Of a stretch of 64,000 bases of DNA, positions 261 to 24,280 are shown piece by piece. Below the pieces are notes generated by a model, which was given only the letters and a program-made list of their open reading frames with translations, ran no database searches and was not told the DNA's origin. The translations under genes and the position numbers were made by a program. The DNA comes from an uncultured Candidatus Rokubacteria bacterium (GTDB lineage Bacteria; Methylomirabilota; Methylomirabilia; Rokubacteriales; CSP1-6): NCBI GenBank assembly GCA_963762145.1, contig CAVXJS010000021.1:608001-672000 (forward strand). Direction: 5' to 3'. Positions within the stretch are counted from its first letter, which is position 1. Each line of letters starts with the position of its first letter.

Positions 261-1082
261 TCAGCGCTCGCTGGTGATCACGTAAGCCTGCATCTTGCCG
301 TCCACCTCGCCCCGGCCGAACCGCCGGCCGAGCGCGTCCGCCGTGACCTCGGTCGCTTCCTCGAGCCGCGCGGCGTCGCGCGCCTCGATCTCGCTCCGCA
401 GCGGGGTGCCCTGGCAGTACGCGATCGCGGGGTCCCGCGGCGACGGTGCCCGGCTCCGCGCGGCCAGGGTGACGATCTCCGGCGGCGCCACGAAGCCGCC
501 GCCGGCCAGATCCTGCGCGATCTGCGCCGGCACGTGATAGCCGTGGGGCGTGCGCGCCAGGAACCGGGGCGGATCCGCGGGAAACAGCGGGGCCAGCGCG
601 GCGGTCACGACGTCCGCGAACTCGTTCTCCTCGATCCGATCCCAGACATTGAAGAGCAGCACGCCCCCGGGACGGAGCACGCGGTGCGCCTCCGAGAACG
701 CCCTGGCCTTGTCGGGGAAGAACATGACCCCGAACTGGCACACCACCGCGTCGAACGCACCGTCGGGGAAAGGCAGCTGCATGGCGTCCGCCTGACGCCA
801 TTCCACCGGCCGCCGGGTTCCGAGGGCCGCCGCCTGATCGAGCATCGGCTGATTCAGGTCCGTGGCCACGATCGCGGCGCGCTCGGGCAACCCGGCTGCC
901 AGCGCGCGCGTCACGACGCCGGTGCCGGCGGCCACCTCGAGCACGCGGCCGGGCGATCGCGCCGCGAGCCGCCGCGCCAGGTCCGCCGCGTACGGCTCGA
1001 AGAGCAACGGGACCAGATACCGCTCGTAGAACTTCGGGATCGATCCTGCGAAGACCTTGTCGGCACCCGCCCCCGTCGTCAT
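261..1082 (-). CDS. Class I SAM-dependent methyltransferase
   Basis: VLEVAAGTG motif I, ADAMQLPFPDGAFDAVVCQFG, VLRPGG. Confidence 0.9.
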   Translation of the reverse strand: MTTGAGADKVFAGSIPKFYERYLVPLLFEPYAADLARRLAARSPGRVLEVAAGTGVVTRALAAGLPERAAIVATDLNQPMLDQAAALGTRRPVEWRQADAMQLPFPDGAFDAVVCQFGVMFFPDKARAFSEAHRVLRPGGVLLFNVWDRIEENEFADVVTAALAPLFPADPPRFLARTPHGYHVPAQIAQDLAGGGFVAPPEIVTLAARSRAPSPRDPAIAYCQGTPLRSEIEARDAARLEEATEVTADALGRRFGRGEVDGKMQAYVITSER

Positions 1083-1083
1083 A

Positions 1084-1860
1084 TCACGCCACGAGCTCGA
1101 TGCTGACGACGCCCAGGCGGGCAAATCTGGCCCGGATCGCATCGCCGGGCTTCGGGCGCAGCATCTTCGAGATGGCACCGGACATGACCACGTCTCCGGC
1201 CTTCAACGCGAGGCCTCGGCTGGCGAGATGGTTGGCGAGCCAGGCGAGGGCGTTCAACGGATTGCCCATCACCTCCGCCGCGGTGTAGGTCCCGACGACT
1301 TCGCCGTTGTGCTCGTACACGACTTCCTCCCGCGCCAGATCGAGCTCCTGGATCGGCACGAGCGGGCTCCCCAGCGCGATGGCCTTGCCAATGACGGTAT
1401 TGGCGATGAAATCTGCCGCGCCGGGCTTCCCGGAGTACATGAAATCAAGCAGCTCGAGCGCGGGCACCGCGCTCTCCACCGCGAGCAGTGCGGTGGCGGC
1501 GGTGACCCTGGGCCCGACCAGCTCGGTGCGCATCCTGAAGGCCACCTCGGCCTCCACCCGCAAGTCGGCGAATCCGCTGACCGACACCGCGGCGCCGCTG
1601 GCGTACTGACCCGGTAGCAGAAAGCCGGAGGCTGGCTCCTGGAGTCCCATGACGGCCTGGCCGGACGGGCTCGTAGCCCCCAGCTTCCATCCGATCGTTC
1701 GCTCTCCGCGCTGTTCCAGCTTCTCGCGGAGGGCGTCCTGGATCGCGTAGGCGTGCTCGAGCGTGAACTCGCCCATCGTCTCCGAGAGAGGGGCCAGCAC
1801 TCGACGGCTGGATCGGGCATCGACCAGGCGCTGGACGGCTGCCGGAACCGAGACGGTCAT
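1084..1860 (-). CDS. 2-keto-4-pentenoate hydratase / FAH-family protein
   Basis: GWKLGATS, RVEAEVAF, VMGNPLNALAWLAN, LKAGDVVMSG. Confidence 0.9.
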   Translation of the reverse strand: MTVSVPAAVQRLVDARSSRRVLAPLSETMGEFTLEHAYAIQDALREKLEQRGERTIGWKLGATSPSGQAVMGLQEPASGFLLPGQYASGAAVSVSGFADLRVEAEVAFRMRTELVGPRVTAATALLAVESAVPALELLDFMYSGKPGAADFIANTVIGKAIALGSPLVPIQELDLAREEVVYEHNGEVVGTYTAAEVMGNPLNALAWLANHLASRGLALKAGDVVMSGAISKMLRPKPGDAIRARFARLGVVSIELVA

Positions 1861-1918
1861 GGACGCTGCCTTGCCTGCCTCATGAGTTTCCTCCTCCGGC
1901 GAGTAGCGCCATGAGCGA

Positions 1919-2926
1919 TCACTGGACGACGTAGTCCGCCCGCTGCAGCAGCGCCGGCGGGATCGTGAGGCCGAGCACCCTAGCCGTCTTCAGGTTGATC
2001 GCCAGCTCGAACTTCGTCGGCGCCTCCACGGGCAGCTCCGCGGGGTTCGCGCCGGTGAGGATCCGGTGAACGTAGGTGGCGCTGCGACGATACAGATCGC
2101 GCCGGTCGGTGCCGTACGACATGAGGCCGCCGGCGTCCACGAACTCCCGGCGGCCGTAGATGGCAGGGAGCCGGCTCATCGACGCGAACTCTAATATGCG
2201 CGCCCGGTACGTGAACATCAGCAGGTCCTCCACCGCGATGAGCGCGTCGACCTGGCCCAGCAGCCCTCGCTCGAATAGCTGTTCGAACGACTCGGATCGC
2301 TGTACCTCGAGGCTCGTGAGCTGGATCCCCATGGCCCGGGCCGCCTTCTCCGTGTCTCTCACGATCGGCGGCGAGTAGAGATCGCCCGGATTCCAGAGGA
2401 TGCTGATTCGCGACGCCCCGGGCACCGCCTCCGCGAGCAGCCGCAGCCGTCGCCCGCCCAGATCGGGCGGGCCCGCGGTGTGCAGCCCGGTGACATTGCC
2501 ACCCGGCCGCTTCAGGCTGGCCACGAGACCCTCGAACACCGGGGCGCCGCCCGATGCCATCACGATCGGGATCGTTCGCGTGGCCTGCCTGGCCGTCAGC
2601 GTCGCGGCGGTTCCGCTCGTCACGATCACGTCGACCTCGAGCCGGACCAGCTCGGTCGCGAGGTCCAGGAACCGCTCGGGGCGGCCATCCGCCGAGCGGT
2701 ACTCGATCACCACGTTCTGCCCCTCCGTGTAGCCCTGCTCCGCCAGTCCCTGGCGGAACGCGCCGAGGTTCGCCGAGTTCGACGCCGCGTCGACGAGCTC
2801 CAGCATCCCGATGCGGTATCCCTTCGCCGCCGGCTGCGCCTGGGGCGTGACCGGCGCGGCGAGCACGAGGACCGCCGCGACCAGGCCCTTGAGCCCGGTC
2901 AGCCACCCGTCAGGCCGGTGTGGCAA
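1919..2926 (-). CDS. ABC transporter substrate-binding protein (ABC_sub_bind type)
   Basis: Signal peptide, [40 protein letters not shown]. Confidence 0.9.
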
Positions 2927-3231
2927 GCTTCAAGCCGACTATTCCAGCGATGATGAGCGCCACGCTGATCAGCCGCCCGGCATTGGCGGACTCTCCCAGC
3001 AGCACGATCCCGAGGATCACGGTACCGACCGAGCCCACACCCACCCAGATGCTGTACGCGGTGCCCACCGGAAGGGACTTCATGGCAACGCCCAGGAGCC
3101 ACAGACTGACGACCATCGCCAGGACCGTCCAGACGCGTGGGCCACAATCGCGTGAACCCTTCCGTGTACTTCAATCCGATGGCCCAGCCGACCTCGAACA
3201 ACCCCGCCAGCACGAGAATGATCCAGGCCAT
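2910..3231 (-). CDS. sugE: SMR efflux transporter SugE/Gdx (one frameshift, likely sequencing error)
   Basis: [32 protein letters not shown] continues in another frame as [16 protein letters not shown]. Confidence 0.85.
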
Positions 3232-3248
3232 ATCGCGATCTCTTCCTT

Positions 3249-3722
3249 TCACACCGGCTTGCGCATCGTGATGCTCGTCGGCCGATCGAATCCGGGGTGG
3301 GCGGACTCGGCGACCTTGCCAAACCCGAGCGCGGCAAACGTCTCGTGGTTCTCGATCAGCTCGATGCGGGTCTCGAGCTCGAGGAACGGCCGTCCGTGCG
3401 CGCGAGCGAGCGCCTCGGCGGCCTCCATGATCCTGCGCGCCACGCCCCGGCGCCTGACCGTCGCATCCACCGCGAGCTTGCCCACGTACACGCAATCCTC
3501 GCGCAGGGAGGCGAACCCGCAGCCGACGAGGCGCTGGCCCTCGAGCGCGAGGATCAGGGCTTCCTCCCGGGCCTTCTCCTCGAGCTGCGCGACGTCCATG
3601 CGCAGCAGCGACGAGGGCGGATCGATCCGTGATTCCATGTAGGCGTAGGCCGAGCGCAGCAGCGCGAGCAGGCCCGTCCAGTCCGAGAATCGCGGCGGCG
3701 ACACCACGACCCGCACACTCAC
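3249..3722 (-). CDS. GNAT N-acetyltransferase
   Basis: [21 protein letters not shown] acetyl-CoA motif; GTG start overlaps upstream stop. Confidence 0.85.
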
Positions 3723-4078
3723 TCGCTCAGGATCTTGTCCGCCCACTCGATGAGCTGAACGAGGATGGTGGGGTTCGCGAAGGACGCTTTCTTCCCCGCC
3801 AGATCGCTCTCGAGGACTCCCCGAGCCCTCGAACAGGCCCCTCACACGTGGATCGCGATCCCGTGGCCCACCGTCGCGCGGAGGGTCTCGGCCAGCGGCG
3901 GCCAGCCCACCGGCACCACCGCGTTGGCGACCGGATCGCGCATCAGCGAGACGGCCTCGCCGAGCAGGAATATCTGAGCCGCGTGGCCGCCCTCCGCCAG
4001 GGCGTTGGCGTGCAGGAACGGGAACACGGCCTTGGTCGGATCGTCGGAGCCCCAGGCGCTCTTCAGCAGGATCTTCAC
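3719..4078 (-). CDS. DsrE-like protein with in-frame UGA (probable selenocysteine, UxxC)
   Basis: Reading through TGA 3844-3842 gives ...[13 protein letters not shown]...[11 protein letters not shown], completing the DsrE fold; G-rich hairpin 3810-3832 follows. Confidence 0.8.
3810..3832 (-). promoter_or_regulatory. Candidate bacterial SECIS element
   Basis: UCGAGGGCU-CGGGG-AGUCCUCGA 9-bp stem starting 9 nt after the UGA, G-containing loop 18 nt downstream. Confidence 0.6.
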
Positions 4079-4095: not shown

Positions 4096-4851
4096 CTAGA
4101 CCCGGACCGGTTCGTGCGCCTTCAGGAAGCGCCGCGCGTGCTCCACGACCTCGTCGATGTGCTCCGGCGAATCCTTCCAGGGATAGATGGTCACCTCGGA
4201 CTTCGGGGCGAGGCTGGCCACCTCCATGGCGACCTTGTACGGGTGCGCGGGCACGTCGTCCGGCGCGATCAGCAACGGGGTCTGGATGGAGCGCACGAAG
4301 TCGCGCGACACGGTGAACACGAAGTCGGCCCGGTTGGTGTACATGCTGGTGAGGAAATCATGGACCATGGCCATCGTGACGTCGGAGCGCTTCTCGCACA
4401 GCGCGGGTCCCCAGCCCTTGATGTTGTTCTGGTAGAACAGGTCGCGCATCTCGGGCCGGGAGCCGCTCGGCTGCATCATCGCGGCCGCGACGACGCGCTC
4501 CGGAGCCCGCCGGATGAGGTTGTGGATCATCGGCCCGCCGATGCAGAAGCCCATGACCAGGAACTCCCGGATGCCGAGGTGGTCCATCAGCCCGAGCTGG
4601 TCGTCGGTGTAGGCATCCCAGGGTCGGTCGATCTCCAGGGGTCCGCTGGATCGGCCGGGGTTGGCGTTGCGCAGGTCGGCGCAGATACAGCGGAAGTCGT
4701 CCTTGTACCGCTCCATCGGGTTGAAGGGCGAGGCGGTCTGCCAGGATGACAGGGCCGAGTTGAGCCCGCCGCCCGGGATCAGCAGCAGGGGGAACCCGGA
4801 ACCAACCTCTTCGTAGTGGATGCGGACGGGGCCTCTCTCGTAGAACGGCAT
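4096..4851 (-). CDS. Alpha/beta fold hydrolase
   Basis: GFPLLLIPGGG, GFCIGG nucleophile elbow (Cys), DDVPAHP. Confidence 0.85.
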   Translation of the reverse strand: MPFYERGPVRIHYEEVGSGFPLLLIPGGGLNSALSSWQTASPFNPMERYKDDFRCICADLRNANPGRSSGPLEIDRPWDAYTDDQLGLMDHLGIREFLVMGFCIGGPMIHNLIRRAPERVVAAAMMQPSGSRPEMRDLFYQNNIKGWGPALCEKRSDVTMAMVHDFLTSMYTNRADFVFTVSRDFVRSIQTPLLIAPDDVPAHPYKVAMEVASLAPKSEVTIYPWKDSPEHIDEVVEHARRFLKAHEPVRV

Positions 4852-4897: not shown

Positions 4898-5167
4898 TCA
4901 CGGCTGGTACGGCGCCTCGGACCGGGGCGCATGAGGCAGCTGCTCGTCCAGAGACTGGCGATAGCTCAGGCATCCCCGCAGGAACTCCGGCCACGTGGGG
5001 ACCGTCGGCACGGGATCCGTCTTCTCGGGTAGGAGGCCCCAGAGATCCGGGTGATGCCAACAAAGATCGTGTCCGGTGCTGTCTCGGTGCGTCCGGATCC
5101 CCGCGCGCAGCCGTCTGGCCTCGTCAATCAGCCGCTCGCGCGTCATGCCCTCGAGATCCTCGTCCAT
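4898..5167 (-). CDS. Conserved hypothetical protein
   Basis: 89 aa ORF, HRDSTGHDLCWHHPDLWGLLPE motif, tightly packed. Confidence 0.7.
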   Translation of the reverse strand: MDEDLEGMTRERLIDEARRLRAGIRTHRDSTGHDLCWHHPDLWGLLPEKTDPVPTVPTWPEFLRGCLSYRQSLDEQLPHAPRSEAPYQP

Positions 5168-5173: not shown

Positions 5174-5554
5174 CTATTCAACGATCTTCCAGTAAGAGTC
5201 CTTGCGTAGGACCTTCCCGCCACGGAACTCCCAGTGATCGCACCCTCGGACCTCTACCTTGCGGCCATCCTTCGTCGTACCGGTCAGCAACCACTCTGAT
5301 ACGCCCATGCTGCCCGACACCCAGTGTCGATCGTCGCCATAGTGCACGTCAGGAGTCGCTTCGAACCTCATCGCCAGGCCCTTGCGCACCCCATCCTTTC
5401 CGGTGAAGCGAGTGCCCCACGGCTTACTGCCCCTCGGCATGTCCAGCGATGAGTCCTCGGCAAAGTAGCCCATGATCTTGTCCAGGTCGTGGGCATTGAA
5501 TGCCGCGGCCAGCTCGAGAAGCAGCTGATAATTGGCCTCTTCCTCGTTCGTCAT
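5174..5554 (-). CDS. SnoaL-like / NTF2 family protein
   Basis: AAFNAHDLDKIM, GVSEWLLTGT, VRGCDHWEF, KDSYWK. Confidence 0.85.
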   Translation of the reverse strand: MTNEEEANYQLLLELAAAFNAHDLDKIMGYFAEDSSLDMPRGSKPWGTRFTGKDGVRKGLAMRFEATPDVHYGDDRHWVSGSMGVSEWLLTGTTKDGRKVEVRGCDHWEFRGGKVLRKDSYWKIVE

Positions 5555-5598: not shown

Positions 5599-6129
5599 TT
5601 ATCGAACACGCCTTGCCCGGTCGAGGAACGCCTCCATCCGTACCTTTTCATCCTCCATGTCCTCCCTCGACCAAGAGGAGCCGGACTCAAAGGTGGCGCC
5701 GTCGGACATCTTGACCATCAGAGTATAGCTGGGAGGACCATCGCTCCACTCATGGGCCCGCACATGGACGCTCTCGAGCGAAGACAGCGGAAGCACCCGC
5801 GTCCGATGTGGAACGACCGGCGCCCCCGTCGAGTACGTGAACGTCGCACGCGCCGCATCGAGGGTCATCCGGGAGCTCAGCCCCGCGACCGCGGCGAATA
5901 CCAGCAACGCGCTCAGCGCGACCGCCCCCGCCGAGATGATCGCCGCGAACAGAAACGCGGGGTGCCGGTAGTCGTTCCATTGGACACGCCATATTAGCTC
6001 GTATGGTGCGAGCAGCGGAATCAAGGCGAGCAACGCAAAGAGGAGCCGCTTCCCGGGCGGCATCGGCGAGAAGACATCGAGACGCTCGTCGGTCTCGGAG
6101 ACCTGGATCCTGGATGCCCCGCTCATCAT
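5599..6129 (-). CDS. Hypothetical membrane protein
   Basis: Two hydrophobic segments; ATGA overlap with upstream gene. Confidence 0.65.
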   Translation of the reverse strand: MMSGASRIQVSETDERLDVFSPMPPGKRLLFALLALIPLLAPYELIWRVQWNDYRHPAFLFAAIISAGAVALSALLVFAAVAGLSSRMTLDAARATFTYSTGAPVVPHRTRVLPLSSLESVHVRAHEWSDGPPSYTLMVKMSDGATFESGSSWSREDMEDEKVRMEAFLDRARRVR

Positions 6130-6930
6130 TGCCGCGAGTCGAGGAACTCCTCGATCAGGCGTGCGGTCAGCTCGGGGTAGCGGGTGTCCGTCTGCGTCAT
6201 CACGACCTCGCCAAGATAGTCCCCATGTCCACCGGGCAACACCAGCAGGCGCGCACCTGAAATCAGCCGAGTCAGCTCGACGGCATGCTCGAGCTTCACG
6301 ATGTCCCGGTCTCCAAGGACGATCAACGTCGGCGCACTCACCGAGCGCACCATATCATCCGGCACATCCTTGAAGTTCTGCATCCTCGCCGCGTCTTTGT
6401 CGTGCATGGTCTTGAGTTGCCGCGCATCCGGGTTCACCCGCAGGAACGCGTCCTTGAGCAGCTTGTGGCATATTCGAGAAGTCGGCCTGCTTCATGAATT
6501 CCCAGAGCTGGGGCTGAGCGCCGGCCTTCTTTGTGATCGACGAAGCAAAGACCAGCCTTCGAACCAGCTGCGGATGCCGTATGGCGACCTGGAGCGCGAC
6601 GCTGGCGCCGTTGCTGAAGCCCAGGATGTCGGCCTTTTCGACTTTCAGATAACGAAGTAAGGCCGCAACGTCGTCCGCGGAGGCTTCGAAGGTAACTGGT
6701 GCCTCGCGATCGCTCGTTCGGCCGTGCCCCTGTTCCTCCACCGCGATCACCCTTCGGCTCCTGGCCAGAACCGGAAGCGCTCTGCCGAACGTGACCTCGA
6801 TGGTCGACCCACCGCCGTGAAGCAGGACCAGCGGCACGCCGTCTCTGCGCCCGTGCACCTCATAGTACATGTTGATGCCGTTGACGGGCGCATGGCCGCT
6901 CTCCAGCGCCTTCGCTTGCGGGGTTGACAT
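6126..6930 (-). CDS. Alpha/beta hydrolase (frameshift ~6465)
   Basis: PLVLLHGGG, GFSNGA elbow; C-terminal half PTLIVLGDRD...LPGGHG in other frame. Confidence 0.8.
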
Positions 6931-6938
6931 GTTATGCG

Positions 6939-7887
6939 CTAGTCGCGTGCTGAATACCAGTCCAGCACCCGTAGGGCGCGGAGCGTGTTCCAGCGGCTGG
7001 GCTTTCCTGCCCCGCCTTCCATGTCGAGCTGGACCGGATCGGGGTGGTGCTCGTGAAGCGCCCATCGTCCGTCCTGATTCCGTCTGCTGGTCACGAGACC
7101 GACCGCCTCGGCAACGCGCTCGTCCGGCTCGACGCCGGCGGCGCGCAAGTAGTCCAGGCCCCTGAGCACGTCGTAGTGCCACGTGGGCGGGAACGCGAAC
7201 CGCGTCCAGTCGTGATTGCCCTTTCGGTCCATGACCACCTCACCGGTTGACAGCCTCCGGAACAAGCGACGCGTCAGGAGGTACTCCTGGGCCCGGCCCC
7301 GCGCGTCCGTCACCGGCGGCCATGGCGCCTCTGGTCTTCTCGTACGCCAGGAGCCCTTCGAGGACGCAGATCGTGGTGTGGAACGACGACCGCACGGAGC
7401 CGCGCTCCGCCTCGCAGTTCCAGCCGCCGTCCGCGAGCTGCTCGCCCAGGAGCCGATCGAGCAGCCGATCGCTCGTCTCACCGAAGTAGGCGCCGAGCGC
7501 CAGGACCCGGCCGTTGATGCAGGGCTCGACCTCGCCCTCGAAGAACGGCGAGTCCCCGAACTCCGACCCCCAGGTGACCTGCTCGCGCACGAGCCCCACG
7601 GCCCTGCGGGCTCGCTCGCTCGTCGGGTCGAGACCCATATCCCGCAGCAGCACCAGGGTGCACAGGGTGGACTGCCAGTGCGGTGCGGCGATGCCATCAC
7701 CCCACTTGCCGTCCGGCCGCTGACGGTCGAGCAGCCGGGAACCCCAACCCTCGGCGGCGACCCGCGCTCGTTCACCGGCAACGGCCTCGTCGGGCTCGCC
7801 GCAGAGGTCGCGCATGACCTGCCAGCAAATCGAAGGGTCCGAATCGAGCAGCCAGGGTATGACCGATTCCCTCGGCTCCGGGATCAA
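6939..7887 (-). CDS. Prenyltransferase/squalene-cyclase-repeat-like protein (frameshift ~7320)
   Basis: WLLDSDPSICWQVMRDL, QLADGGWNCE, SFHTTICVLEGL; FPPTWHYDVLRGLDY...PSRWNTLRALRVL in second frame. Confidence 0.75.
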
Positions 7888-8225
7888 GATTTGTTCAAGG
7901 CGACGGCGGCCCGGATGAGAGCCTTCAGAGCCGCCCGGTCCAGCTTGTCGCCTTCGTGGAAGTCGATGGCGCGCCTGGTGTTGCCCTCGAGACTGGAATT
8001 GAAGAGGCCGGAAGGGTCCTTCAGGAAGGCGCCCTTGGCGAAGGTCATCTTCACGACCTTCTTGTACGCCTCGCCGGTACAGATCAGCCCGTTGTGCGAC
8101 CAGACCGGAGTCCCTCTCCACTTCCGCTCCTCGGTCACTTCGGGGTCCGCCTCCTTGATCACGGCGCGGAGCCGGGAGAGCATCTCGCCCCTCCAGTCGT
8201 CTCCCTTCGGCCTGCTCTTCTTCAT
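7884..8225 (-). CDS. DUF1801 domain protein
   Basis: EADPEVTEERKWRGTPVW, DPSGLFNSSLEGNTRRAID. Confidence 0.85.
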   Translation of the reverse strand: MKKSRPKGDDWRGEMLSRLRAVIKEADPEVTEERKWRGTPVWSHNGLICTGEAYKKVVKMTFAKGAFLKDPSGLFNSSLEGNTRRAIDFHEGDKLDRAALKALIRAAVALNKS

Positions 8226-9124: not shown

Positions 9125-9259
9125 CCTATACCGAGCAAGCGTTCTTCTTGGCCGGAGACTATGGAGCCGAGTCTCGCGAGAAGGGCACCAATGGGCTTCT
9201 GGACCAATTTGCGTCCTACCTAGGAACACTGCGTCGAACCGGACCACGCACATAGCTCG

Positions 9260-15320: not shown

Positions 15321-15323
15321 GGC

Positions 15324-16741: not shown

Positions 16742-17116
16742 TCACGCCAGCCCCTCCGGGGCGACCACGCCCATTGCTTGACGAAGACTGCGAGAGCCTC
16801 TTGGCATTCTCTCTAGCTCGGAGAAGACCGCCTCCCATTGCGGTGGATCAAGCCACTCGTACAGATGACCGTCGTCATCAACATCCATGGCTGGTGCCAG
16901 CAACTGCATGCGCGCCTGCCACGCGGCAAACGCCCGCCTGGATGCGACTGCCTCCCGGCGGCTCCGCCACATCAGCCCCATACCGAGTGCCATGGCTAGA
17001 CCAAATAGCGAAAGAAACAGAGGACTCCATGGCCGAGGCCGCACGACAACCAACACGAGAAGGAGCAGCGCCCAGAGAGCATAGTGCGCGAACTGAGAAC
17101 GCAGGAGCCTATTCAT
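16742..17116 (-). CDS. Hypothetical membrane protein
   Basis: Two N-terminal TM helices. Confidence 0.6.
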   Translation of the reverse strand: MNRLLRSQFAHYALWALLLLVLVVVRPRPWSPLFLSLFGLAMALGMGLMWRSRREAVASRRAFAAWQARMQLLAPAMDVDDDGHLYEWLDPPQWEAVFSELERMPRGSRSLRQAMGVVAPEGLA

Positions 17117-17143: not shown

Positions 17144-17348
17144 TCATGCCCTCGCGACCGCCTCACCACACTGAAGGAGGTAGCCATTGTTGTCATAGAT
17201 CGCACACTCGCGCATTCCGTAGTCGAACGTCTCAATGGGATAACACACGCGAGCTTCGTTCTTGAGGCGGGACCAGAGGCCGTCGACATCGCTCACACGA
17301 AAGTAGAGCGACCCGGTGAACGCCGGGGCCGGGTCTCTCTACGTTCAT
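17144..17348 (-). pseudogene. VOC/glyoxalase gene with internal deletion
   Basis: MNVER joined out of frame to PAFTGSLYFRVSDVDGLW...YGMRECAIYDNNGYLLQCGE; not in ORF track. Confidence 0.7.
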
Positions 17349-17650
17349 TGAATCCCCTCAGAGTCCTGGCTAGCCGGGTAGAAGGCAAAACCAGGCGTTA
17401 CATCTGGAACATCCTCGACTCCAACCTCGTCAATATCCTCCACATAGATGATCGGCGGATCAGCGCGCTCGTTGAGCACGCTACGGCCAAGCTTTGGATC
17501 CTGTCTGATGATCTCGACTGCGGCACTCTCTGCCTCGATCTCGCTGGCCGCTTGGACAAAACGCGTCGTGAAAAACCCAACACACTCGGGACCGGTATCA
17601 TGCCGAAGCCAGAAGTTCCGGCCACGCACCAACACCCGGTAGTGCGGCAT
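17345..17650 (-). CDS. Hypothetical protein
   Basis: MPHYRVLVRGRNF..GFFTTRFVQA..GFAFYP with GGAG RBS. Confidence 0.65.
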   Translation of the reverse strand: MPHYRVLVRGRNFWLRHDTGPECVGFFTTRFVQAASEIEAESAAVEIIRQDPKLGRSVLNERADPPIIYVEDIDEVGVEDVPDVTPGFAFYPASQDSEGIQ

Positions 17651-17711
17651 CTCCCCATCCACTCCGTCCAACAGACCAACGTTCAGCGCCTGAACGGGCG
17701 ACGGTCCAACC

Positions 17712-18197
17712 TCAACCGCGGCGCGCCGCCTCGATTGCGGCGATGTCGATCTTGTTCATCTGCATCATCGCATCGAACGCGCGCTTGGCGGCGGCGGGAT
17801 CGGGATCGGTTATCGCGTTGGTCAGAGCGATCGGCGTAATCTGCCAGGACAATCCCCACATGTCCTTGCACCAGCCGCACGCACTCTCTTGGCCGCCGTT
17901 GCCGACGATTGCGTTCCAGTAACGATCGGTTTCGGCCTGGTCGGCGGTTGCGACCTGAAACGAGAATGCTTCGTTGTGCTTGAATGAGGGTCCGCCATTG
18001 AGTCCGAGGCAGGGAATCCCCATCACGGTAAACTCAACCGTCAACACATCCCCTTTCTTCCCGGACGGAAAGTCTCCCGGGGCGCGATGCACCGAGCCGA
18101 CGGATGAATCGGGAAAGGTCTTGGCGTAGAATCGCGCCGCGTCCTCAGCGTTGCCATCGTACCAAAGGCAAATCGTGTTCTTTGCTGGCTTCACCAT
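17712..18197 (-). CDS. PhnB-like VOC family protein
   Basis: ICLWYD, GLNGGP, ESACGWCKD.WGLSWQI, MMQMNKIDIA. Confidence 0.9.
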   Translation of the reverse strand: MVKPAKNTICLWYDGNAEDAARFYAKTFPDSSVGSVHRAPGDFPSGKKGDVLTVEFTVMGIPCLGLNGGPSFKHNEAFSFQVATADQAETDRYWNAIVGNGGQESACGWCKDMWGLSWQITPIALTNAITDPDPAAAKRAFDAMMQMNKIDIAAIEAARRG

Positions 18198-18241
18198 GTC
18201 ACTCTCCTCCGTGATGAGTGATTCCCTGTGCCTCCGGCCGC

Positions 18242-18658
18242 TCACAATTTGACCTGCGTGTCAGCGGGCGGAATGCTCGAGGTGGACACGCGACGGCATA
18301 GCCAGAGCGCAACACACAGTGGGCCCCACATGAACCAGGACGTCAAGAGGATCACCAGCAAAGCATCGAACACCGAGCCTCGCGCAAGCGCGAGCATACG
18401 GTAGCCACACCACAGAATTCCGAGCGACAGACATACAGACGCCAGCCACCTCGCTCCTCGTGCCTGGACTCCTATCGCGGCCACCAAGGCTGAGGCGGCT
18501 ACCAGCAGGACCATCACGGCGGTGGCGAGAATCTCTGCGGTCCCCCGACAAGGCGTGTCGGAGCACGCCAGTCTGGGATCGACAATCGGCAGGATCGCAG
18601 TAGGGGCCAGCAGACCGACAGCAAACACCGCTACGTATACTCGAAGAGCGACGATCAA
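18242..18658 (-). CDS. Hypothetical membrane protein
   Basis: Four hydrophobic segments; TTGA overlap with LysE stop. Confidence 0.5.
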   Translation of the reverse strand: MIVALRVYVAVFAVGLLAPTAILPIVDPRLACSDTPCRGTAEILATAVMVLLVAASALVAAIGVQARGARWLASVCLSLGILWCGYRMLALARGSVFDALLVILLTSWFMWGPLCVALWLCRRVSTSSIPPADTQVKL

Positions 18659-19319
18659 CGGGCGCGAACCTCCTGGAACACCATCCGAAGCGCCAGGCCG
18701 ACAAACACAAGTCCGAGGACGCTGGACGCCACGTGGTCGAATCTGCCGCTCGGGTTGAAAGCCCAACGCACTGAACCCGCTCCCCACGCTACGCCTAGAT
18801 TCACCGTCATCACGGTAATCGTGAGGAGTCCCCCCAGCACCGCGATCTGCAACGGCACTTCTTCTGCCGGCGCGGTGGCGAACTGAGGAAGGAACAAGCT
18901 GAAGAAGAGCAGCGCCTTGGGATTGAGCAGATTATTGACCAGGCCTCGCCACACCCAGCCACGTGGTCGCTCGCGGTCGATCGCCCGTGGCGCCGCGGAA
19001 ACCTCCTCGCCGGTACGCCTCGCCTTCCTGAGCAGGCCTATCCCGATCCACAGGAGATAGGCCGCTCCAACGAACCGCACACCGTCGGCGACGACCGGCA
19101 TGCGTTGCATGAGGTGCCCCAAGCCGAACGCCACCAGGGCTGTCTGAAGGAATCCGGCCAAGGCGATGCCACGGAACACCACACGCCGGCTCGGGCGCCG
19201 CGCGCGAGCGCATGAGACACGATCAACGTCAGGTCCGGGCCGGGGGCGACTGCCAACGCGAGCACTGCGAGGAAGAACACCGGAAGAACAGCCGGGTCGA
19301 GCATAACGAAGCTTACCAT
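18655..19319 (-). CDS. LysE family translocator (frameshift ~19185)
   Basis: LAVAPGPD, GAAYLLWIG, NLLNPKALLFF..FLPQF. Confidence 0.85.
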
Positions 19320-19369
19320 CGAGCGTTCGCGTGAGACTTCCGCGCGGCCTGATAGCACGGCGGCAACGG

Positions 19370-19397
19370 GTCTAGCGCTTCAACCACGGCCTTTGGG

Positions 19398-19398
<1 letters not shown>
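19370..19398 (-). mobile_element. Collapsed/degenerate attC remnant
   Basis: GTCTAGC ... TTTGGGC abutting the DHFR stop codon, only 29 bp. Confidence 0.4.
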
Positions 19399-19949
<551 letters not shown>

Positions 19950-19974
19950 GTAAGCGTACCGATCGCCATAGGGC

Positions 19975-20070
19975 GGCCTACGCCCGGATCAGGCGCGGCG
20001 GGCGCCCGCCAACCACCCGTCAGCGGCCGCGCGCCTTGCCCCTGCCGCCGCCTGCATTCGGAAGTTGGGC
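19975..20070 (-). mobile_element. attC site (one core box damaged)
   Basis: GGCCTAC-gcccggatCAGGCGcggcggg ... ccgcCGCCTGcattcggaa-GTTGGGC; long stem with bulged base. Confidence 0.7.
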
Positions 20071-20076
20071 GGCACA

Positions 20077-21065
20077 TCACTCTATGATGTGGTCGGCCTG
20101 CGCCAGCACAGAGGCGGGAATCTTGATACCTAGAGCTGTCGCGGTCTTCAGATTGATGATGAGCTCGAACTTGTTCGGTTGAAGCACCGGAAGATCTGCT
20201 GGCTTGGCGCCTTTGAGAATTCGGCCGGCGTAGATGCCGGCGTGGCGATGCGCATCCGTCATGTTGGTTCCGTAGCTGATCAGACCGCCAGCGGAAACGA
20301 GCTCGCGCCGGTCATAAATAGTGGGCAGTCGGTGGCGGGTAGCCAGTTCAGTAAGCCGATCGCGCGCGGAGACAAAAAGCAGGTCGGGGGTGACAAGCAG
20401 GGCGCCGACCCTCTGCTCGACGAGAATGGCGAAAGCCGTGTCGAAATCGCGCCTGGTGCGGGCGGCCACGACATGGGTCTGCAGCCGGAGCGCGCGGGCG
20501 GCGGCCTCGACATCTTTCGTGTCGGACGCGGCATTGGGGTTGTTCGGATTGACCAGCACGCCGATGGTTCTGGCTGTCGGCACCACCTCGTGCAGAATCT
20601 GCAAGCGTTTCGCCAAGAGCACATTGAACAAAAAACTCACCCCCGTGAGGTTCCCTCCCGGACGACCGAGACTGGCGACGAGACCGAACTTGACGGGGTC
20701 GGCCCCCATCACGAAAACGACGGGGATAGTCGGAGTCGCGGCCTTCCCGCGAGTGCCAGAGCCGTTCCAGCGCTTGTGACGATCACGGTCACCTGACGGC
20801 CGACCAAATCAGCCGCGAGCGGCGACAATCGATCGGATCGGTCCTCCGCCCAGCGGAATTCGATCGTGACGTTGCGGCCGTCGACATAGCCTGCCTCGCT
20901 GAGCCCCTGACGGAACCCGGCCACGTAACCTGCCCAAGCCGCGGCCGTCGAGGTGCCGAGGAAACCGATCACCGGCATTGCTGGCTGCTGCGCGTGAGTG
21001 GCGGCCGACACGACGAGAAGGAAGATGGCCGTGACGACCGTGACCGCTCTGAGCGGCCGTCTCAT
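20077..21065 (-). CDS. ABC transporter substrate-binding protein (frameshift ~20745)
   Basis: [27 protein letters not shown]; [26 protein letters not shown]. Confidence 0.9.
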
Positions 21066-21257: not shown

Positions 21258-21710
21258 TCATCGGGAAGTCTGCTGCCCGAGCTCTTGGGCAAGCCCGATG
21301 AGGATTCCTTCGGGGCCCCGGATGTAGCAGAGCCGATACGTGTCTTCGTACTGGACCACTTCGCCGACGAGCTCCGCGCCGCGTTTGCCGAGCCTGGCGA
21401 GCGTATCGTCGATGTCCTCCACGGTGAACATAACGCGCAGGTAACCGAGAGCGTTCACCGGGGCGCTGCGGTGATCGGCGACCACAGGCGGCGCGAGGAA
21501 TCGGGACATCTCGAGCCGGCTGTGCCCGTCCGGCGTACGCATCATGGCAATCTCGACGCGCATGTCGCGCAATCCAGTGACGCCATCTGCCCAGGCTCCT
21601 GCGATTGGGGCGCGCCCCTCGAGCTCGAGGCCAAGTTCGGTGAAGAACTCAATGGCGGCGTCGATGTCTTCTACCACGATGCCGACGTTGTCCATACGCT
21701 TGACCGTCAT
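21258..21710 (-). CDS. VOC family protein
   Basis: MDNVGIVVEDI, YRLCYIRGPEGILIGLA. Confidence 0.9.
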   Translation of the reverse strand: MTVKRMDNVGIVVEDIDAAIEFFTELGLELEGRAPIAGAWADGVTGLRDMRVEIAMMRTPDGHSRLEMSRFLAPPVVADHRSAPVNALGYLRVMFTVEDIDDTLARLGKRGAELVGEVVQYEDTYRLCYIRGPEGILIGLAQELGQQTSR

Positions 21711-21724
21711 GATGTCTCCTGGGC

Positions 21725-21777
21725 CTCTAGCGCCGCGTTCAGAGGCGCACCCGGCGCGTCCTCTGCAACGATTAGGC
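21725..21777 (-). mobile_element. Degenerate attC site
   Basis: CTCTAGC..CGTT-CAGAGG ... CCTCTG-c-AACG-ATTAGGC; stem and extrahelical base kept, both core boxes mutated. Confidence 0.65.
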
Positions 21778-21793
21778 TGTCTCGTGAACACCG

Positions 21794-22279
21794 TCACGGC
21801 TGAGACGCCGCGGACGCATGCAGATGGGCAAGCTTCCACGTCTCACGCTCCCAGACGAACAGGAGTGTGCGTCTCTGCAGGGGCAACTGGCGACCGTCAG
21901 CGGTGGACAGCCCGTCAAGCATGAATGTGACGAGCGCCACATCCCCCAAGCGTTCCAGTCTGAGGTCGCGCGGCTTCAGGTGCAGGTAGGGAGGCCCGGG
22001 CCTACGCGCCCGCGTTTCCTCGAAGAACCGCCGCCAACGCGCCTCGACTTCTGTCCTTCCGGTCACGCGATCGGGTGTATCACCAAACGGGAAGAAGACC
22101 GTCGGCTCTGATGCCCAGATGGTCCGGAATGGCTCCCAGTCGAGATCGTCCAGCGCACGTAGGAATCGCTCAGCCGCCGTGCAGACTCCTGCGAGGTCCT
22201 CCGGGGCCTTAGCCTGCGAGGCAGTCACCGGCCCCTGTACCAGCGCAGTTCCCACCACCGAGACCGCCAGAACCGCCAC
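21794..22279 (-). CDS. SnoaL-like / NTF2 family protein
   Basis: FLRALDDLDW, RRTLLF..WKLAHLHAS. Confidence 0.75.
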   Translation of the reverse strand: MAVLAVSVVGTALVQGPVTASQAKAPEDLAGVCTAAERFLRALDDLDWEPFRTIWASEPTVFFPFGDTPDRVTGRTEVEARWRRFFEETRARRPGPPYLHLKPRDLRLERLGDVALVTFMLDGLSTADGRQLPLQRRTLLFVWERETWKLAHLHASAASQP

Positions 22280-22432: not shown

Positions 22433-22702
22433 TCAGTCGTTGAGGAAGTAGATGTCAGGTCGATCGAGAACGCCGACCTTCTGCATGGTCTCGCGCAGGT
22501 CGGCAGATTCGGCGAATGCCTTCGCGCGGTCTAGGTCCGCGGCGCGGAAGAGGATGACAACCTCGTTCGAGTCGTGAGCGCCCCGGAAAAGGTGCGCTTC
22601 CGTGAGGCCGGCTTCAACACGCTTGGGAAGGTCAGCGTCGTATCCGGGTTTCCACACCGAGAAGTCGCGAACCTTGTGCCGCACGAGCATGTAGCGTGCC
22701 AT
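22433..22702 (-). CDS. Small conserved hypothetical protein
   Basis: LVRHKVRDFSVWK..DSNEVVILF..LRETMQKVGV; GGAGG RBS. Confidence 0.75.
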   Translation of the reverse strand: MARYMLVRHKVRDFSVWKPGYDADLPKRVEAGLTEAHLFRGAHDSNEVVILFRAADLDRAKAFAESADLRETMQKVGVLDRPDIYFLND

Positions 22703-22755
22703 GGAGGGCCTCCTTCAGGTTGGTGAGCTGGTTAGAGGGATGATACCCGATTGCC

Positions 22756-22830
22756 GTCTAACGCTCGCATTCACCCGCGGCCGAGCGAGCGCACGCGAGC
22801 CCGGCCGTCAGGTGCAATGCGTGGTTAGCC
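22756..22830 (-). mobile_element. attC site (intact)
   Basis: GTCTAAC..CGCATT-CACC ... GGTG-c-AATGCG..GTTAGCC, 75 bp. Confidence 0.9.
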
Positions 22831-22840
22831 GGCGCGCCAT

Positions 22841-23281
22841 TCACCGTGGCTCGTATTGCTTTGCGTAGTCGACGGTGAGCCATCGTTCTGGCCGCATACG
22901 AACAAGCACGTTCCCGACCACGTCCCGCGTGCGCTCGATGTACGAGTCGCCCACTTCGGTGCCGAGATAACGGCGCGCGAGGGGGCGCCGGTCGCGCTCA
23001 AGATCCGCCGCTTCGACCGCGACGATCGGCCCCTCCACGCTGACGTACTTATACGGCAGCGTTTCCGTTTGCACGCACAGACTGAATCGGCCCGCGCGCT
23101 CCAGCAGCTTTCCCTTTCGCGACGTCCGACCAGTTATGATTCGGACCTCGCCTCCCGGCTCGTAGGAATACCAAATCGGAACCACGAGCGGCCCATGACC
23201 ATCTTCCGCAACGCTGATGACGGCCACATGAACGTCGGCCAGAAATGCCTCCCGTTCTTCCTTCGTCATCGTGAGCGACAT
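22841..23281 (-). CDS. Pyridoxamine 5'-phosphate oxidase family protein (cassette 3)
   Basis: EREAFLA, VPIWY, YKYVSVEG, RPERWLTVDY. Confidence 0.85.
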   Translation of the reverse strand: MSLTMTKEEREAFLADVHVAVISVAEDGHGPLVVPIWYSYEPGGEVRIITGRTSRKGKLLERAGRFSLCVQTETLPYKYVSVEGPIVAVEAADLERDRRPLARRYLGTEVGDSYIERTRDVVGNVLVRMRPERWLTVDYAKQYEPR

Positions 23282-23310
23282 CGTTGTCCCTTTCGGTCGG
23301 AAACTTCATC

Positions 23311-23380
23311 GGCTAACGCCCGCGCTCACCGGCCGGAGCGAGCAACGTGAGCTCCGGGCCGGTGCCGCGCGACGTTGGGC
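23311..23380 (-). mobile_element. attC site (intact)
   Basis: GGCTAAC..CGCG-CACCGGCCGGAGC ... GCTCCGG-GCCGGTG-c-CGCG..GTTGGGC, 70 bp. Confidence 0.9.
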
Positions 23381-23396
23381 AGCCCCCCGAACACCG

Positions 23397-23792
23397 TCAC
23401 TCGATGACTTCATCTGCATGCACCAGCAGTGATCGAGGGATCGTGAGACCAAGCGCCGTGGCGGTTCTCAGGTTGATGATCAGCTCGAACTTCGTGGGCT
23501 GCTCCACGGGGAGGTCACCCGGCTTGGCGCCCTTCAAGATCCTGTCCACGTACTCGGCAGCTCGACGATAGATCTGCCGTCGATTGACGCCGTACGACAT
23601 CAACCCGCCCTCCTCGGCATAGTCTCTGCCCGGGTACATCGCCGGGAGCCTGACCTTTGCTGCAAGATCGGCGATCTGTCGGCGAAGGCTGTACGTCAAT
23701 GGATCCGGGATGACGAGCAAGCCACCTGCGCCAGCCGCGATCGCGGCCTCGAACTGGCGTGGCACCTGATCGGCGGTTCTCGCCTCAACCAA
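23397..23792 (-). pseudogene. 5'-truncated ABC substrate-binding protein gene (cassette 2)
   Basis: Only the C-terminal ~130 aa ([22 protein letters not shown]) remain, ~35 bp from the upstream attC. Confidence 0.8.
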
Positions 23793-23828
23793 GCCGACCG
23801 AGTTCGCGACCTCGCGCCCATCCCTGCC

Positions 23829-23889
23829 CTCTAACGTTTGAGCTCAGCGGCGGCCTGAAAGGGCCGTCCGCTGCAGCGACTTGTTAGGT
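23829..23889 (-). mobile_element. attC site (intact, first cassette)
   Basis: CTCTAAC..GCT-CAGCGG-cggcc tgaaa gggccg-CCGCTG-c-AGC..GTTAGGT, 61 bp; gene stop TAA lies inside the R'' box. Confidence 0.9.
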
Positions 23890-24198
23890 GGAATACGCTG
23901 GGCCACCTATGCCAGGAACCACCACTGTTTTAAAGATTGCCGATTCCCGGTCGGTTGCCAACGACAAGAGCTCGAGGTCAGCGCGATAGGCGGCGAACTG
24001 CTCCTGGCCAGGGAAGCTGACAAGATGTATCTCAAACGGGATATCTGGCGAATTCTCTTGCCCCGTGCGAACCACCTTTTCAATTGAGCCGCCATACTTC
24101 CTCATGATTCGGGCCGCCTTTCGCTCATAGGCTTCGAATTCAGCAACGGCGCCTGGGCGGACCCACAGACTTACGACCCGATAGATTGGACTCTGCAC
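23884..24198 (-). CDS. DUF1330-like small protein (cassette 1)
   Basis: FEAYERKAARIMRKYGG, FEIHLVSFP; GGAGG RBS; lower GC. Confidence 0.75.
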   Translation of the reverse strand: MQSPIYRVVSLWVRPGAVAEFEAYERKAARIMRKYGGSIEKVVRTGQENSPDIPFEIHLVSFPGQEQFAAYRADLELLSLATDRESAIFKTVVVPGIGGPAYST

Positions 24199-24214
24199 TC
24201 AAACCTCCAAGCCC

Positions 24215-24280
24215 ACCTAACTAGAAGTATCCCGGGCCGCATATTTCCCCCCCCCGGGGTGGGTCTGATGCGGATAATCC
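24215..24280 (-). mobile_element. attI-like primary recombination site
   Basis: Minus strand TTATCCGCA..ATATGCGG..GATACTTCTA-GTTAGGT; GTTAGGT complements the cassette-1 R'' ACCTAAC; no attC hairpin. Confidence 0.75.

Follow-up and report, generated by a model that had tools for sequence, protein, structure and literature searches.

The window analysed here is the whole 64,000-nucleotide (nt) stretch at positions 608,001 to 672,000 of contig CAVXJS010000021.1 (G000:C21:608001-672000 in our numbering), from an uncultured Candidatus Rokubacteria bacterium whose genome bin comprises 6.26 Mb in 25 contigs. We interpret window positions 247-24556, with a probability of roughly 0.8, as a sedentary chromosomal integron of Rokubacteria in advanced decay, in which the attC sites of the gene cassettes would have been lost by discrete deletions under a weak selection filter. 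The locus shows mobile cassettes turning into ordinary, often broken, chromosomal genes, and how cassettes cease to move and become ordinary genes has until now been mostly a matter of hypothesis (Cury et al. 2016). An earlier note, made from the sequence alone, had described 261-24221 as an integron array being converted into operon-like DNA along a gradient of attC erosion.

A chromosomal integron at a fixed locus

The platform of the integron and its two flanks consist of the following features:
1..246, minus strand: left conserved flank, end of a helix-turn-helix-like gene, 81% nt identity to G008:C20 39764-39995, where homology resumes
24222..24410, minus strand: attI region, with the crossover at the GTT of ...TTCTAGTTAGG at ~24221-24223, conserved with G013 and G020
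24411..24556, minus strand: remnant of the integrase gene intI, co-directional with the cassettes, located by tblastn with the IntI of G013
24766..25629, plus strand: DinB_2 gene, right conserved flank (Pfam PF12867)

Measured against the 327 residues of the G013 integrase, what is left of intI corresponds to residues 295-327 (24411-24509) and 10-26 (24506-24556), each with 94% identity and in different frames, and the translation closes with the conserved tyrosine-bearing C-terminus. On this contig the integrase profile TIGR02249 matches 31 C-terminal positions only (285-315; window 24414-24506, minus strand), at 35 bits against a cut-off of 265. The same profile found no full integron integrase in the genome, and the tyrosine recombinase family PF00589 had no match on the contig. 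Since the remainder consists of the two ends of the protein, a single internal deletion has taken ~268 of the 327 codons, and we regard the integrase as dead in this genome; the live integron assumed in the earlier note is thus at odds with the internally deleted intI. The cluster therefore has no integrase gene of the kind carried by complete integrons, and its neighbourhood holds the intI remnant only, as expected of clusters of attC sites lacking integron integrases (CALIN).

From the intI stop codon to the motif TTCTAGTT, ~190 nt are conserved with G013 and G020. Similarity stops directly after TAGTT, which places the attI crossover at ~24221-24223. A GTT core that opens the first cassette beside intI, as predicted for an attI site, is consistent with this placement, and the same junction motif is present in G023.

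This platform recurs in related species. A full-length intI above the curated cut-off was found in 10 of 20 genomes of the same genus, and DinB_2 genes with 89-98% amino acid (aa) identity stand beside intI in G011, G013, G014, G015, G016 and G020. Overall, DinB_2 adjoins intI in 7 of the 14 intI loci compared (L026 has a partial match of 49 residues at the end of the locus) and adjoins attC arrays in G008 and G017. Among 80 DinB_2 loci, attCs lie beside the gene in six, every one of them with a DinB_2 at least 87% identical. The locus is therefore a sedentary chromosomal integron, held at a fixed place across related species, with a dead integrase. In G017 (C118; L066 7310-9093), 1.8 kb without an IntI match lie between DinB_2 and the nearest of five strong attCs, and something else appears to fill the integrase position there.

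Between these flanks the DNA is highly variable. Compared with G008, homology is absent between window positions 246 and 24633, barring scattered cassette-sized blocks. With G013 the window shares the genes to its left, including those upstream of the left flank, as well as the methyltransferase gene at 261-1178 and the ABC_sub_bind gene at 1919-2926, while everything from 2929 to attI is different. Across G000, G008 and G013 the interior differs fully between identical flanks, so that 261-24221 is best described as a variable region framed by flanks conserved in the genus. The array also has a lower GC content (0.59-0.70 in the 1-kb bins of 1001-25000; 0.73 in bin 1-1000) than the DNA beyond it, where 36 of 39 bins reach 0.70-0.78 and the remaining three 0.654-0.696. 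Almost every credible array gene lies on the minus strand, and the genes are mostly short; co-orientation is incomplete, the AHSA1-like gene (8906-9255) being on the plus strand.

Intact, damaged and missing attC sites

To detect attCs we relied on covariance models. Model R1 was built from the four clear sites of the window and used to collect 19 attCs in eight relatives, and model R2 was rebuilt solely from those 19. Scanning the whole 64 kb on both strands with filters off, R2 returned 66 matches at E ≤ 10, among which six sites were retained:
22754..22832, minus strand: attC, intact (R2 63.4 bits)
23309..23382, minus strand: attC, intact (51.3 bits; bottom-strand DNA fold z = -3.55)
14866..14927, minus strand: attC, intact, with the plus strand as bottom strand (47.7 bits, E 7.9e-9)
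23827..23891, minus strand: attC, intact (47.1 bits; fold z = -4.45)
19973..20072, minus strand: attC, degenerate, one T of the GTT triplet lost (20.6 bits)
21723..21784, minus strand: attC, degenerate, AAC changed to AAT and GTT to GCT (20.2 bits; the same degenerate site in G008 scores 19.4 bits)

Intact sites are placed right after stop codons and have an R'' box with AAC at its end, followed by an imperfect palindrome and an R' box opening with GTT. The plus strand of the three proximal ones folds as a bulged hairpin (z of -4.45, -3.55 and -2.92), the site at 14868 doing so more weakly (z of -1.16). In the two sites of ~20 bits, the R2 alignments show that the stem is retained and the core triplets are damaged. 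The note had listed four intact sites and two point-mutated ones at 21725 and 19975, and the scan agrees with it on all six; it likewise bears out the statement that attCs become undetectable below ~14.8 kb, because the best R2 score on either strand of 1-14800 is 11.3 bits, which is noise level. For comparison, the maximum in the 30 kb to the left of the window is 13.7 bits. The model is sensitive across the order, recovering attCs of 33-69 bits in more than 12 genomes of other genera. Outside the array, one match on the other strand (31945-32009, 22.2 bits) was rejected as chance because both core boxes are missing from its alignment. Rfam, which holds no attC family, gave no hits over the window, and a finder based on regular expressions and ungapped pairing was dropped after recovering none of the true sites.

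By this home-made model, the array contains the attC cluster expected of a CALIN or a complete integron (at least two attCs in one orientation, <4 kb apart): three sites of 47-63 bits within 1.1 kb, together with the one at 14866 and the two degenerate ones, all on one strand. Sedentary chromosomal integrons have large arrays, and this one counts ~36-39 gene units with only six detectable attCs. Tools based on attC would consequently report a cluster of four to six sites where ~24 kb is array-derived, which calls for caution in annotation. The gradient proposed in the note survives as a contrast between an attC-bearing proximal part and an attC-less distal part; it is not monotonic, with attC-less junctions 1.9 and 3.0 kb from attI and an intact attC at 9.3 kb.

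Counterparts of attC-less genes in relatives

We searched 183 genomes of the order at the DNA level, scanned the fetched loci with R2 and mapped their genes by tblastn. Eight window genes without an attC of their own have attC-bearing counterparts:
4898..5167, minus strand: 89-aa gene, former cassette (84% aa identity to G017 L066 9306-9572)
7884..8225, minus strand: DUF1801 gene, former cassette (PF08818; G050 homologue 93% nt)
8222..8879, minus strand: RibD_C gene, former cassette, frameshifted near 8338 (G004 homologue 79% nt)
11340..13040, minus strand: SulP sulfate permease, former cassette (95% aa to G133 L065 1624-3321)
14634..14855, minus strand: 73-aa cassette gene, own attC gone (93% nt to G017:C118 9641-9919)
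15746..16729, minus strand: fusion open reading frame (ORF), NmrA-like (residues 1-270) plus a DUF7832 fragment (Pfam NmrA 6-264; DUF7832 positions 9-55 of 115)
19398..19949, minus strand: RibD_C cassette gene, attC lost (97% nt to the first cassette of G023)
21258..21710, minus strand: glyoxalase/vicinal oxygen chelate (VOC) cassette gene, attC lost (94-99% aa in six genomes)

The SulP gene matches its G133 counterpart, which lies within an array and is followed by an attC of 38.3 bits, over 566 of 566 residues. Homology extends from the ATG to ~12 nt past the stop codon, and the window's neighbouring genes begin 6 nt upstream and 19 nt downstream. For the 89-aa gene, homology is restricted to the ORF, and the G017 counterpart sits between attCs of 60.2 and 51.3 bits. 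The proximal RibD_C gene (19398-19949) can be aligned to the first G023 cassette from the cassette 5' boundary to just past the stop, behind which G023 carries an attC of 51.1 bits (R1) or 58.2 bits (R2); copies in G080 and G103 also have attCs. In G004, attCs of 68.8 and 58 bits border the distal RibD_C gene (8222-8879), and in G050 attCs of 49.5 and 48.4 bits border the DUF1801 gene, so that two separate attC-flanked cassettes elsewhere are joined in the window, as in fused cassettes. Downstream of NmrA, attCs score 48.6 bits in G114 and 49.8 bits in G081. The glyoxalase/VOC gene at 21258-21710 is flanked by attCs in G044, G052 and G131, similarity to the window ceasing ~28 nt past the stop, and the 73-aa gene, which in the window stands only 30 nt from the next gene, is a cassette between attCs in G017 and G131.

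Because several of these pairs are 95-97% identical, their unalignable flanks are breakpoints of deletion or replacement, and drift is excluded as their cause. The relatives' homologues bear attCs and similarity to the window stops at the ends of the ORFs or close to them; the attCs were thus lost by deletion, in keeping with the note's proposal that the hairpins were removed in this way. Together with the conserved flanks, the eight genes also uphold its description of 261-24221 as integron-derived, or at least variable, array DNA.

If the integron instead reached only from ~14.8 to ~24.2 kb, the distal 14 kb would be an ordinary variable genomic island, and the cassettes seen elsewhere would have been made from such chromosomal genes. 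The lack of detectable attCs below 14.8 kb and the larger genes there (SulP with 566 aa, a PEP mutase) fit this explanation, as does the hydrolase gene at 4096-4851, for which nearly all of the 24 loci scanned with filters off gave no strong attC (L060 has a site of 35.2 bits). Also counting for it, the origin of cassettes is given as unknown by Cury et al. (2016, PMC4889954). However, the distal region has the strand, the lower GC and the small genes of the proximal part, and its content is wholly different among G000, G008 and G013 inside identical flanks. Moreover, the check that the note had suggested on homologues of distal genes in related genomes came out in favour of cassettes: SulP, the 89-aa gene, the distal RibD_C gene and DUF1801 are attC-flanked or attC-followed there, and these bona fide cassette copies show no trace of the window's neighbour genes. 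We therefore consider an island very improbable and the distal part a component of the decaying integron.

Two-zone arrays in related genomes

Comparable arrays occur in relatives. G013, whose intI is intact, carries six attCs in the first 4.2 kb from attI, five of them at 49-69 bits and the sixth at 17 bits with filters off or 27 bits with default filters; in its remaining 13.8 kb (L028 1-13762), which include glyoxalase and SnoaL_3 genes, R2 reaches 16.3 bits at most. In G017, five attCs of 46-60 bits are followed by 28 kb with a maximum of 18.8 bits, including DUF1801 and hydrolase genes. G008 lacks intI and has one attC of 41.9 bits and one degenerate site in common with the window, and its attC-less genes (LysE, glyoxalase, NmrA, the 6939-type gene, DsrE-like and hydrolase) stand in a partly different order. 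The division into an attC-bearing proximal and an attC-less distal zone is thus a property of the genus, independent of integrase loss. Since G013 has this build with an intact intI, attC erosion would be a standing process and not merely a consequence of losing the integrase.

A further cluster of attCs lies in a nearly closed genome of another genus (G133:C6 ~1214700-1220800; L064/L065). It contains the window's adjacency of ABC_sub_bind and RibD_C, at 95-98% and 89% identity, as well as the SulP cassette, and the 20 kb upstream gave no match to IntI. Genera seem to have blocks of several cassettes in common.

Deletion end points and overlapping genes

Junctions without attC are tight: the gap has a median of 6 nt over 21 junctions below 14.8 kb, compared with 83-138 nt at the six attC-bearing junctions. 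Stop and start codons overlap by 4 bases at 3722/3719, 6129/6126, 7887/7884, 8225/8222, 17348/17345 and 18658/18655. The note had taken these overlaps as joining cassette genes into translationally coupled runs. All six exist, but where they can be dissected (8225/8222, 7887 and 17348) they look like by-products of deletion end points; translational coupling itself is possible.

The junction of the distal RibD_C gene and DUF1801 illustrates this. The window matches the G004 cassette until a few codons before its end and then continues with the last ~10 nt of the 5' untranslated region (UTR) of the G050 DUF1801 gene, switching at a short similar stretch. Such a pattern is what a microhomology-mediated deletion leaves behind, here one that took out the gene end, the attC and most of the next leader. 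The TGA of the overlap at 8225/8222 belongs to the native ATGAAG of DUF1801 and was reached after the deletion; because of the upstream frameshift near 8338, the actual ORF (7884-8879) runs through into DUF1801. At 7887/7884, the native start has been deleted and a TTG takes its place, and the ATG at 17348 opens a frame of 39 codons, different from that of the glyoxalase remnant behind it.

Events of this kind recur in the order. The RibD_C attC of G133 is a G080-type site minus 28 central nt (18.7 bits), and of the glyoxalase attC, intact in G044, only the two core boxes remain in G013:C33, with 5 nt between them. Also in G133, an ABC_sub_bind gene is cut off by a deletion running into its attC, and in G006 a PF06983 gene abuts RibD_C with a gap of 4 nt. 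From these comparisons, such events are common in the order. Palindromes are known to be unstable, and on this basis hairpins and microhomology would promote the deletions.

The note had also listed attCs collapsed to stubs of core boxes:
15299..15321, minus strand: core-like boxes 8 nt apart, read by eye, with no R2 hit and no homologue among the genomes searched
19370..19398, minus strand: remnant of the 3' UTR of the RibD_C cassette, 27 of 28 nt as in the G080 3' UTR

The second of these is not a collapsed attC. In G080 the attC begins ~50 nt past the RibD_C stop, and the window has lost the remaining UTR and the entire attC. For the same reason we rejected this stretch as the last stage of a collapse series leading from G023 through G133 to the window. 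A possible stub at 17121 found no support. A further candidate, absent from the note's list, is the 40-nt spacer after the PF06983 gene (17672-17711, minus strand). This spacer has ...GGCGCTGAACGTTGGTC at its end, similar to the 3' end, with L' and R' boxes, that RibD_C-type attCs have in G023 and G080, and may be a genuine remnant of an attC. Overall, the time series of domestication proposed in the note is coarse, with six detectable attCs in non-monotonic order and one of its stubs refuted.

Taken together, these observations suggest how the locus may have reached its present state. The platform occupies a place beside DinB_2 that is fixed in the genus, and the deletion in intI would leave nothing in the genome to move cassettes. 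The attC hairpins of three cassettes by attI and of one at 9.3 kb still seem fit for recombination, and two attCs would have been inactivated through point changes in their AAC and GTT triplets. At ~30 other junctions the attC, and usually the untranslated flanks too, would have been removed by discrete deletions, presumably illegitimate or slippage events of an ordinary kind, to which the hairpin-forming attC and short microhomologies would predispose. Such deletions should build up with residence time, hence the barest part would be the distal one. Selection would filter weakly: deletions that spare ORFs persist, giving a tight operon-like spacing, while many genes have nevertheless been frameshifted, truncated or fused.

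A more general version, which we put forward only as a tentative and rather doubtful idea, is a conveyor belt that runs in Rokubacteria even with an active integrase, as in G013. Cassettes would enter at attI, drift distally and be stripped of attC and UTRs by collapse and microhomology deletion, ORF-sparing products would be kept, and the far end would become a source of fixed operons and fusion proteins. If true, integrons would generally allow genes to be gained for good, and each intermediate stage could be seen within a single genus.

Gene decay and selection

Besides the two fusion ORFs, the array contains the following broken genes:
2910..3231, minus strand: SMR (small multidrug resistance) family gene, split by a frameshift (PF00893 positions 1-32 in 3121-3231 and 40-93 in 2913-3116, different frames)
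6126..6932, minus strand: alpha/beta hydrolase with a frameshift near 6460 (6933-6463 and 6458-6135, in two frames, both match one intact ORF of G105)
6939..7887, minus strand: conserved gene without a Pfam family, frameshifted near 7320, native 5' end replaced (one intact ORF in G008)
8906..9255, plus strand: AHSA1/SRPBCC-like gene on the opposite strand, apparently frameshifted (PF08327 positions 1-35 of 125 in 8906-9121; the rest, in another frame, by eye)
17144..17323, minus strand: glyoxalase/VOC remnant, 5'-truncated, 59 codons, start codon missing (C-terminal 54 residues of the full-length G019 glyoxalase)
18655..19358, minus strand: LysE transporter, frameshifted (Pfam LysE positions 31-191, confined to 18655-19182; continuous in a single frame in G008, 94% nt)
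20077..21065, minus strand: ABC_sub_bind cassette gene, frameshifted near 20712 (Pfam match split into 16-70 and 90-292; one frame in G089)
23397..23792, minus strand: ABC_sub_bind fragment, C-terminal third (Pfam positions 199-293 of 293)

Frameshifts were called relative to intact homologues or to the Pfam profile and affect seven genes: SMR, the 6126-6932 hydrolase, the 6939-7887 gene, the distal RibD_C gene, LysE, the ABC_sub_bind gene at 20077 and, probably, the AHSA1-like gene. Two genes are truncated fragments (23397-23792 and 17144-17323). The glyoxalase remnant has no Pfam hit alone, is not similar to the array's other glyoxalase and was identified through homologues only. Of the two fusion ORFs, RibD_C and DUF1801 share one frame of 331 codons owing to the frameshift; NmrA is fused to the DUF7832 fragment. 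For NmrA, 17 homologous loci besides that of G008 match residues 1-270 (one of them 5-270), and the G008 copy is in two pieces (residues 1-181 and 189-270). Truncations and fusions are independent of single bases. As a control, none of the 31 ORFs scanned in 26.6-62.8 kb has a domain split across two frames.

Such lesions could also arise if strain variants of a hypervariable array had been collapsed during assembly, creating false junctions and frameshifts. The state of the bin (25 contigs, completeness of 88%, contamination of 5.4%) leaves room for this, and arrays break the assemblies of most relatives right after intI. Yet blocks that include the neighbourhoods of attC-less junctions recur at 88-94% identity in the independent assembly G008, junctions of the same kinds are found in G006, G013 and G133, and split domains are missing from the 31 control ORFs outside the array. 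In addition, soil metagenome runs from two studies, one of which may be the source sample, contain 59-81% of the sampled words of 15000-24900. An assembly artefact is, in our view, the most improbable of the explanations considered, and true decay the better account of the broken genes.

Adaptive domestication, as the note would have it, assumes that selection favours attC-stripping deletions and thereby packs useful cassettes into coupled operons under the integron promoter. The median distal gap of 6 nt with five exact 4-nt overlaps, and deletions that end exactly at ORF bounds (SulP at its ATG, the 89-aa gene at both ends), are what such selection would produce. It would also be in line with the candidate selenoprotein gene preserved with its recoding hairpin (see below), with a two-zone build where intI is intact (G013) and with ratios of nonsynonymous to synonymous substitution rates (dN/dS) of 0.05-0.30 between intact genes other than SulP and their homologues. 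However, these dN/dS values span the whole divergence and thus record past constraint, not constraint only since attC loss. The same runs hold the seven frameshifted genes, two fragments and two fusion ORFs, the TGA at 8225/8222 is part of the downstream native ATGAAG, the overlap at 17348 opens a short out-of-frame ORF and the TTG at 7887 replaces a deleted native start. With the integrase dead and the dissected overlaps by-products, adaptive domestication into coupled operons is unlikely, and the locus is better read as decaying under a survivorship filter than as building operons.

Several points weigh against this interpretation as decay. The attC model is home-made and was seeded from the window's own four sites, though rebuilt from relatives only, and the distal part may hold an unusual attC type. 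The order of attC states along the array is non-monotonic. Consensus errors of a metagenome-assembled genome in a strain-variable region may be behind the frameshifts. The dN/dS of 0.05-0.30 for intact distal genes indicates purifying selection overall, and from it some of these genes are probably still useful. Finally, the cassette origin of the methyltransferase, the FAA hydrolase, the PEP mutase, the 4096-4851 hydrolase and several orphan ORFs is suggested by position only; no attC-flanked homologue of these distal genes was found in the 183 genomes of the order.

Relation to known integrons

The sedentary chromosomal integrons of Xanthomonas occupy a fixed locus, often have an inactivated integrase and carry arrays that differ between close relatives; the present locus resembles them in its fixed chromosomal site, inactivated integrase and variable arrays. 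In the 'inverted' integrase group, for example in Treponema denticola, intI is co-directional with the cassettes. The window is alike in orientation, the only trait compared: its intI stop lies upstream of attI on the cassette strand. No integrons of Rokubacteria or Methylomirabilota were found in the literature searched, judged by titles and the beginnings of abstracts.

The locus shares with CALIN and degenerate integrons an attC cluster without a working integrase and with an intI pseudogene nearby. Cury et al. (2016, PMC4889954) reported intI pseudogenes near 15 of 279 CALIN, and in their paper CALIN with very degenerate attCs are suggested to be possible intermediates in the stabilization of cassette genes; the idea that attC loss leads to stabilization is thus already in print as a hypothesis. 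In contrast to CALIN as described there, the attC-bearing portion is here the minority of a 24-kb array, its attC-less remainder is tied to cassettes through homologues in relatives, and the site is a vertically kept chromosomal one in an uncultured phylum. Fused cassettes arising through attC loss have been described for class 1 integrons (PMC4670013), and the RibD_C-DUF1801 and NmrA-DUF7832 junctions are of the same kind. In mobile integrons such fusions are described as rare single events, whereas ~30 consecutive junctions of a chromosomal array are concerned here.

What the locus and its relatives add are matched pairs of cassettes with and without attC, exact breakpoints, collapsed hairpins and fused ORFs, which permit an event-by-event study of attC loss. 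Fixed-site chromosomal integrons are common in this genus of an abundant uncultured soil phylum, and cassettes are common to several genera at 85-99% identity.

Other genes of the array and its surroundings

In the proximal part of the array (14931-24198), the remaining genes are as follows:
14931..15272, minus strand: ABM monooxygenase cassette (PF03992)
15324..15761, minus strand: GNAT acetyltransferase (Pfam)
16742..17116, minus strand: 124-aa ORF (Pfam scan)
17345..17671, minus strand: 108-aa ORF (Pfam scan)
17712..18245, minus strand: PF06983 (3-dmu-9_3-mt) gene (Pfam, 166.8 bits)
18242..18658, minus strand: 138-aa ORF (ORF list, Pfam scan)
21794..22279, minus strand: SnoaL_3 cassette gene (Pfam; attC-flanked homologue in G017)
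22433..22702, minus strand: 89-aa ORF, followed by 153 nt without attC (R2 scan, spacing)
22841..23281, minus strand: PNPOx cassette gene (Pfam; 97% aa with attC in G132)
23884..24198, minus strand: first cassette gene, weak DUF1330 match (95% aa in G013:C33)

The distal part (261-14855) additionally contains:
261..1178, minus strand: SAM methyltransferase (Pfam Methyltransf_11, 89 bits; 86% aa in G013, absent from this place in G008)
1084..1860, minus strand: FAA_hydrolase-family gene (PF01557, 39 bits; counterpart absent here in G013 and G008)
1919..2926, minus strand: ABC_sub_bind gene, full length (PF04392 positions 2-292 of 293; 78% aa to G013 L028 4156-5118)
3249..3722, minus strand: GNAT acetyltransferase (PF00583; GTGA overlap with the upstream gene)
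3719..4078, minus strand: DsrE-like gene, selenoprotein candidate (in-frame TGA at 3839-3841 in a U-x-x-C context)
4096..4851, minus strand: alpha/beta hydrolase, attC-less (PF00561)
5174..5554, minus strand: SnoaL_2 gene (PF12680, 71.6 bits)
5599..6129, minus strand: 176-aa ORF, no family (Pfam scan)
9260..9736, minus strand: Tdi1_C-like gene (PF08906, 37.7 bits)
10079..10540, plus strand: orphan ORF with a signal-peptide-like start, overlapping 10109-11320 (ORF list)
10109..11320, minus strand: long ORF, first ~110 residues GGACT-like, remainder doubtful (Pfam)
13044..13724, minus strand: 226-aa ORF (Pfam scan)
13746..14618, minus strand: PEP_mutase-family gene (PF13714, 255 bits)

The ORF at 10109-11320 probably begins with a GGACT-like gene, the rest being non-coding or remnant sequence, and the plus-strand ORF that overlaps it has no homologues among the 182 other genomes of the order. 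Genes for ABC transporter substrate-binding proteins (ABC_sub_bind, PF04392) occur three times in the array (1919-2926, 20077-21065 and 23397-23792), and paralogues elsewhere end beside attCs; the cassette 5' boundary of the second, at 21110, agrees with G133. With further copies in L028, L065, L167 and L176, this is a repeatedly captured cassette family, often directly before an attC, which is unusual.

The DsrE-like gene was considered as a pseudogene, a possibility that was dropped. G008 conserves both its TGA and the frame beyond it, a hairpin of 11 bp begins ~11 nt past the TGA, and Pfam DsrE scores 45.5 bits when the TGA is read through. The genome has selenocysteine (Sec) machinery, with a tRNA-Sec at C9:756629-756726 and a SelB match of 363 bits, and the gene is likely to be a selenoprotein gene within an integron-derived region.

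The hydrolase at 4096-4851 has ~91-94% nt identity in 26 loci from many genera, mostly with different neighbours; these include one locus (L048) from the unpublished genome G048, the only unpublished genome that any claim here draws on. Scanning 24 copies with filters off, R2 found one strong nearby attC (35.2 bits, ~380 nt upstream, in L060) and three weaker hits of 13.7-14.8 bits (L043, L056 and L060). As a unit, the gene (251 aa) with a 43-nt leader (4105-4894; loci L038-L063) is 92-98% identical at the aa level across 26 genomes of two families, whereas the flanking DinB_2 has only 55-66% aa identity between genera, and at most 5 of the 26 loci have a common neighbour. It appears to be a gene-sized unit that has been moved or exchanged.

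Just to the right of the integron, a single ORF (26606-28186, minus strand) joins a C-terminal HAD fragment (profile positions 134-191 of 191) to a full luciferase-like monooxygenase, and at 28813-29499 (plus strand) a Meth_synt_2 match is limited to profile positions 155-317 of 324. Both may be further gene remnants outside the array.

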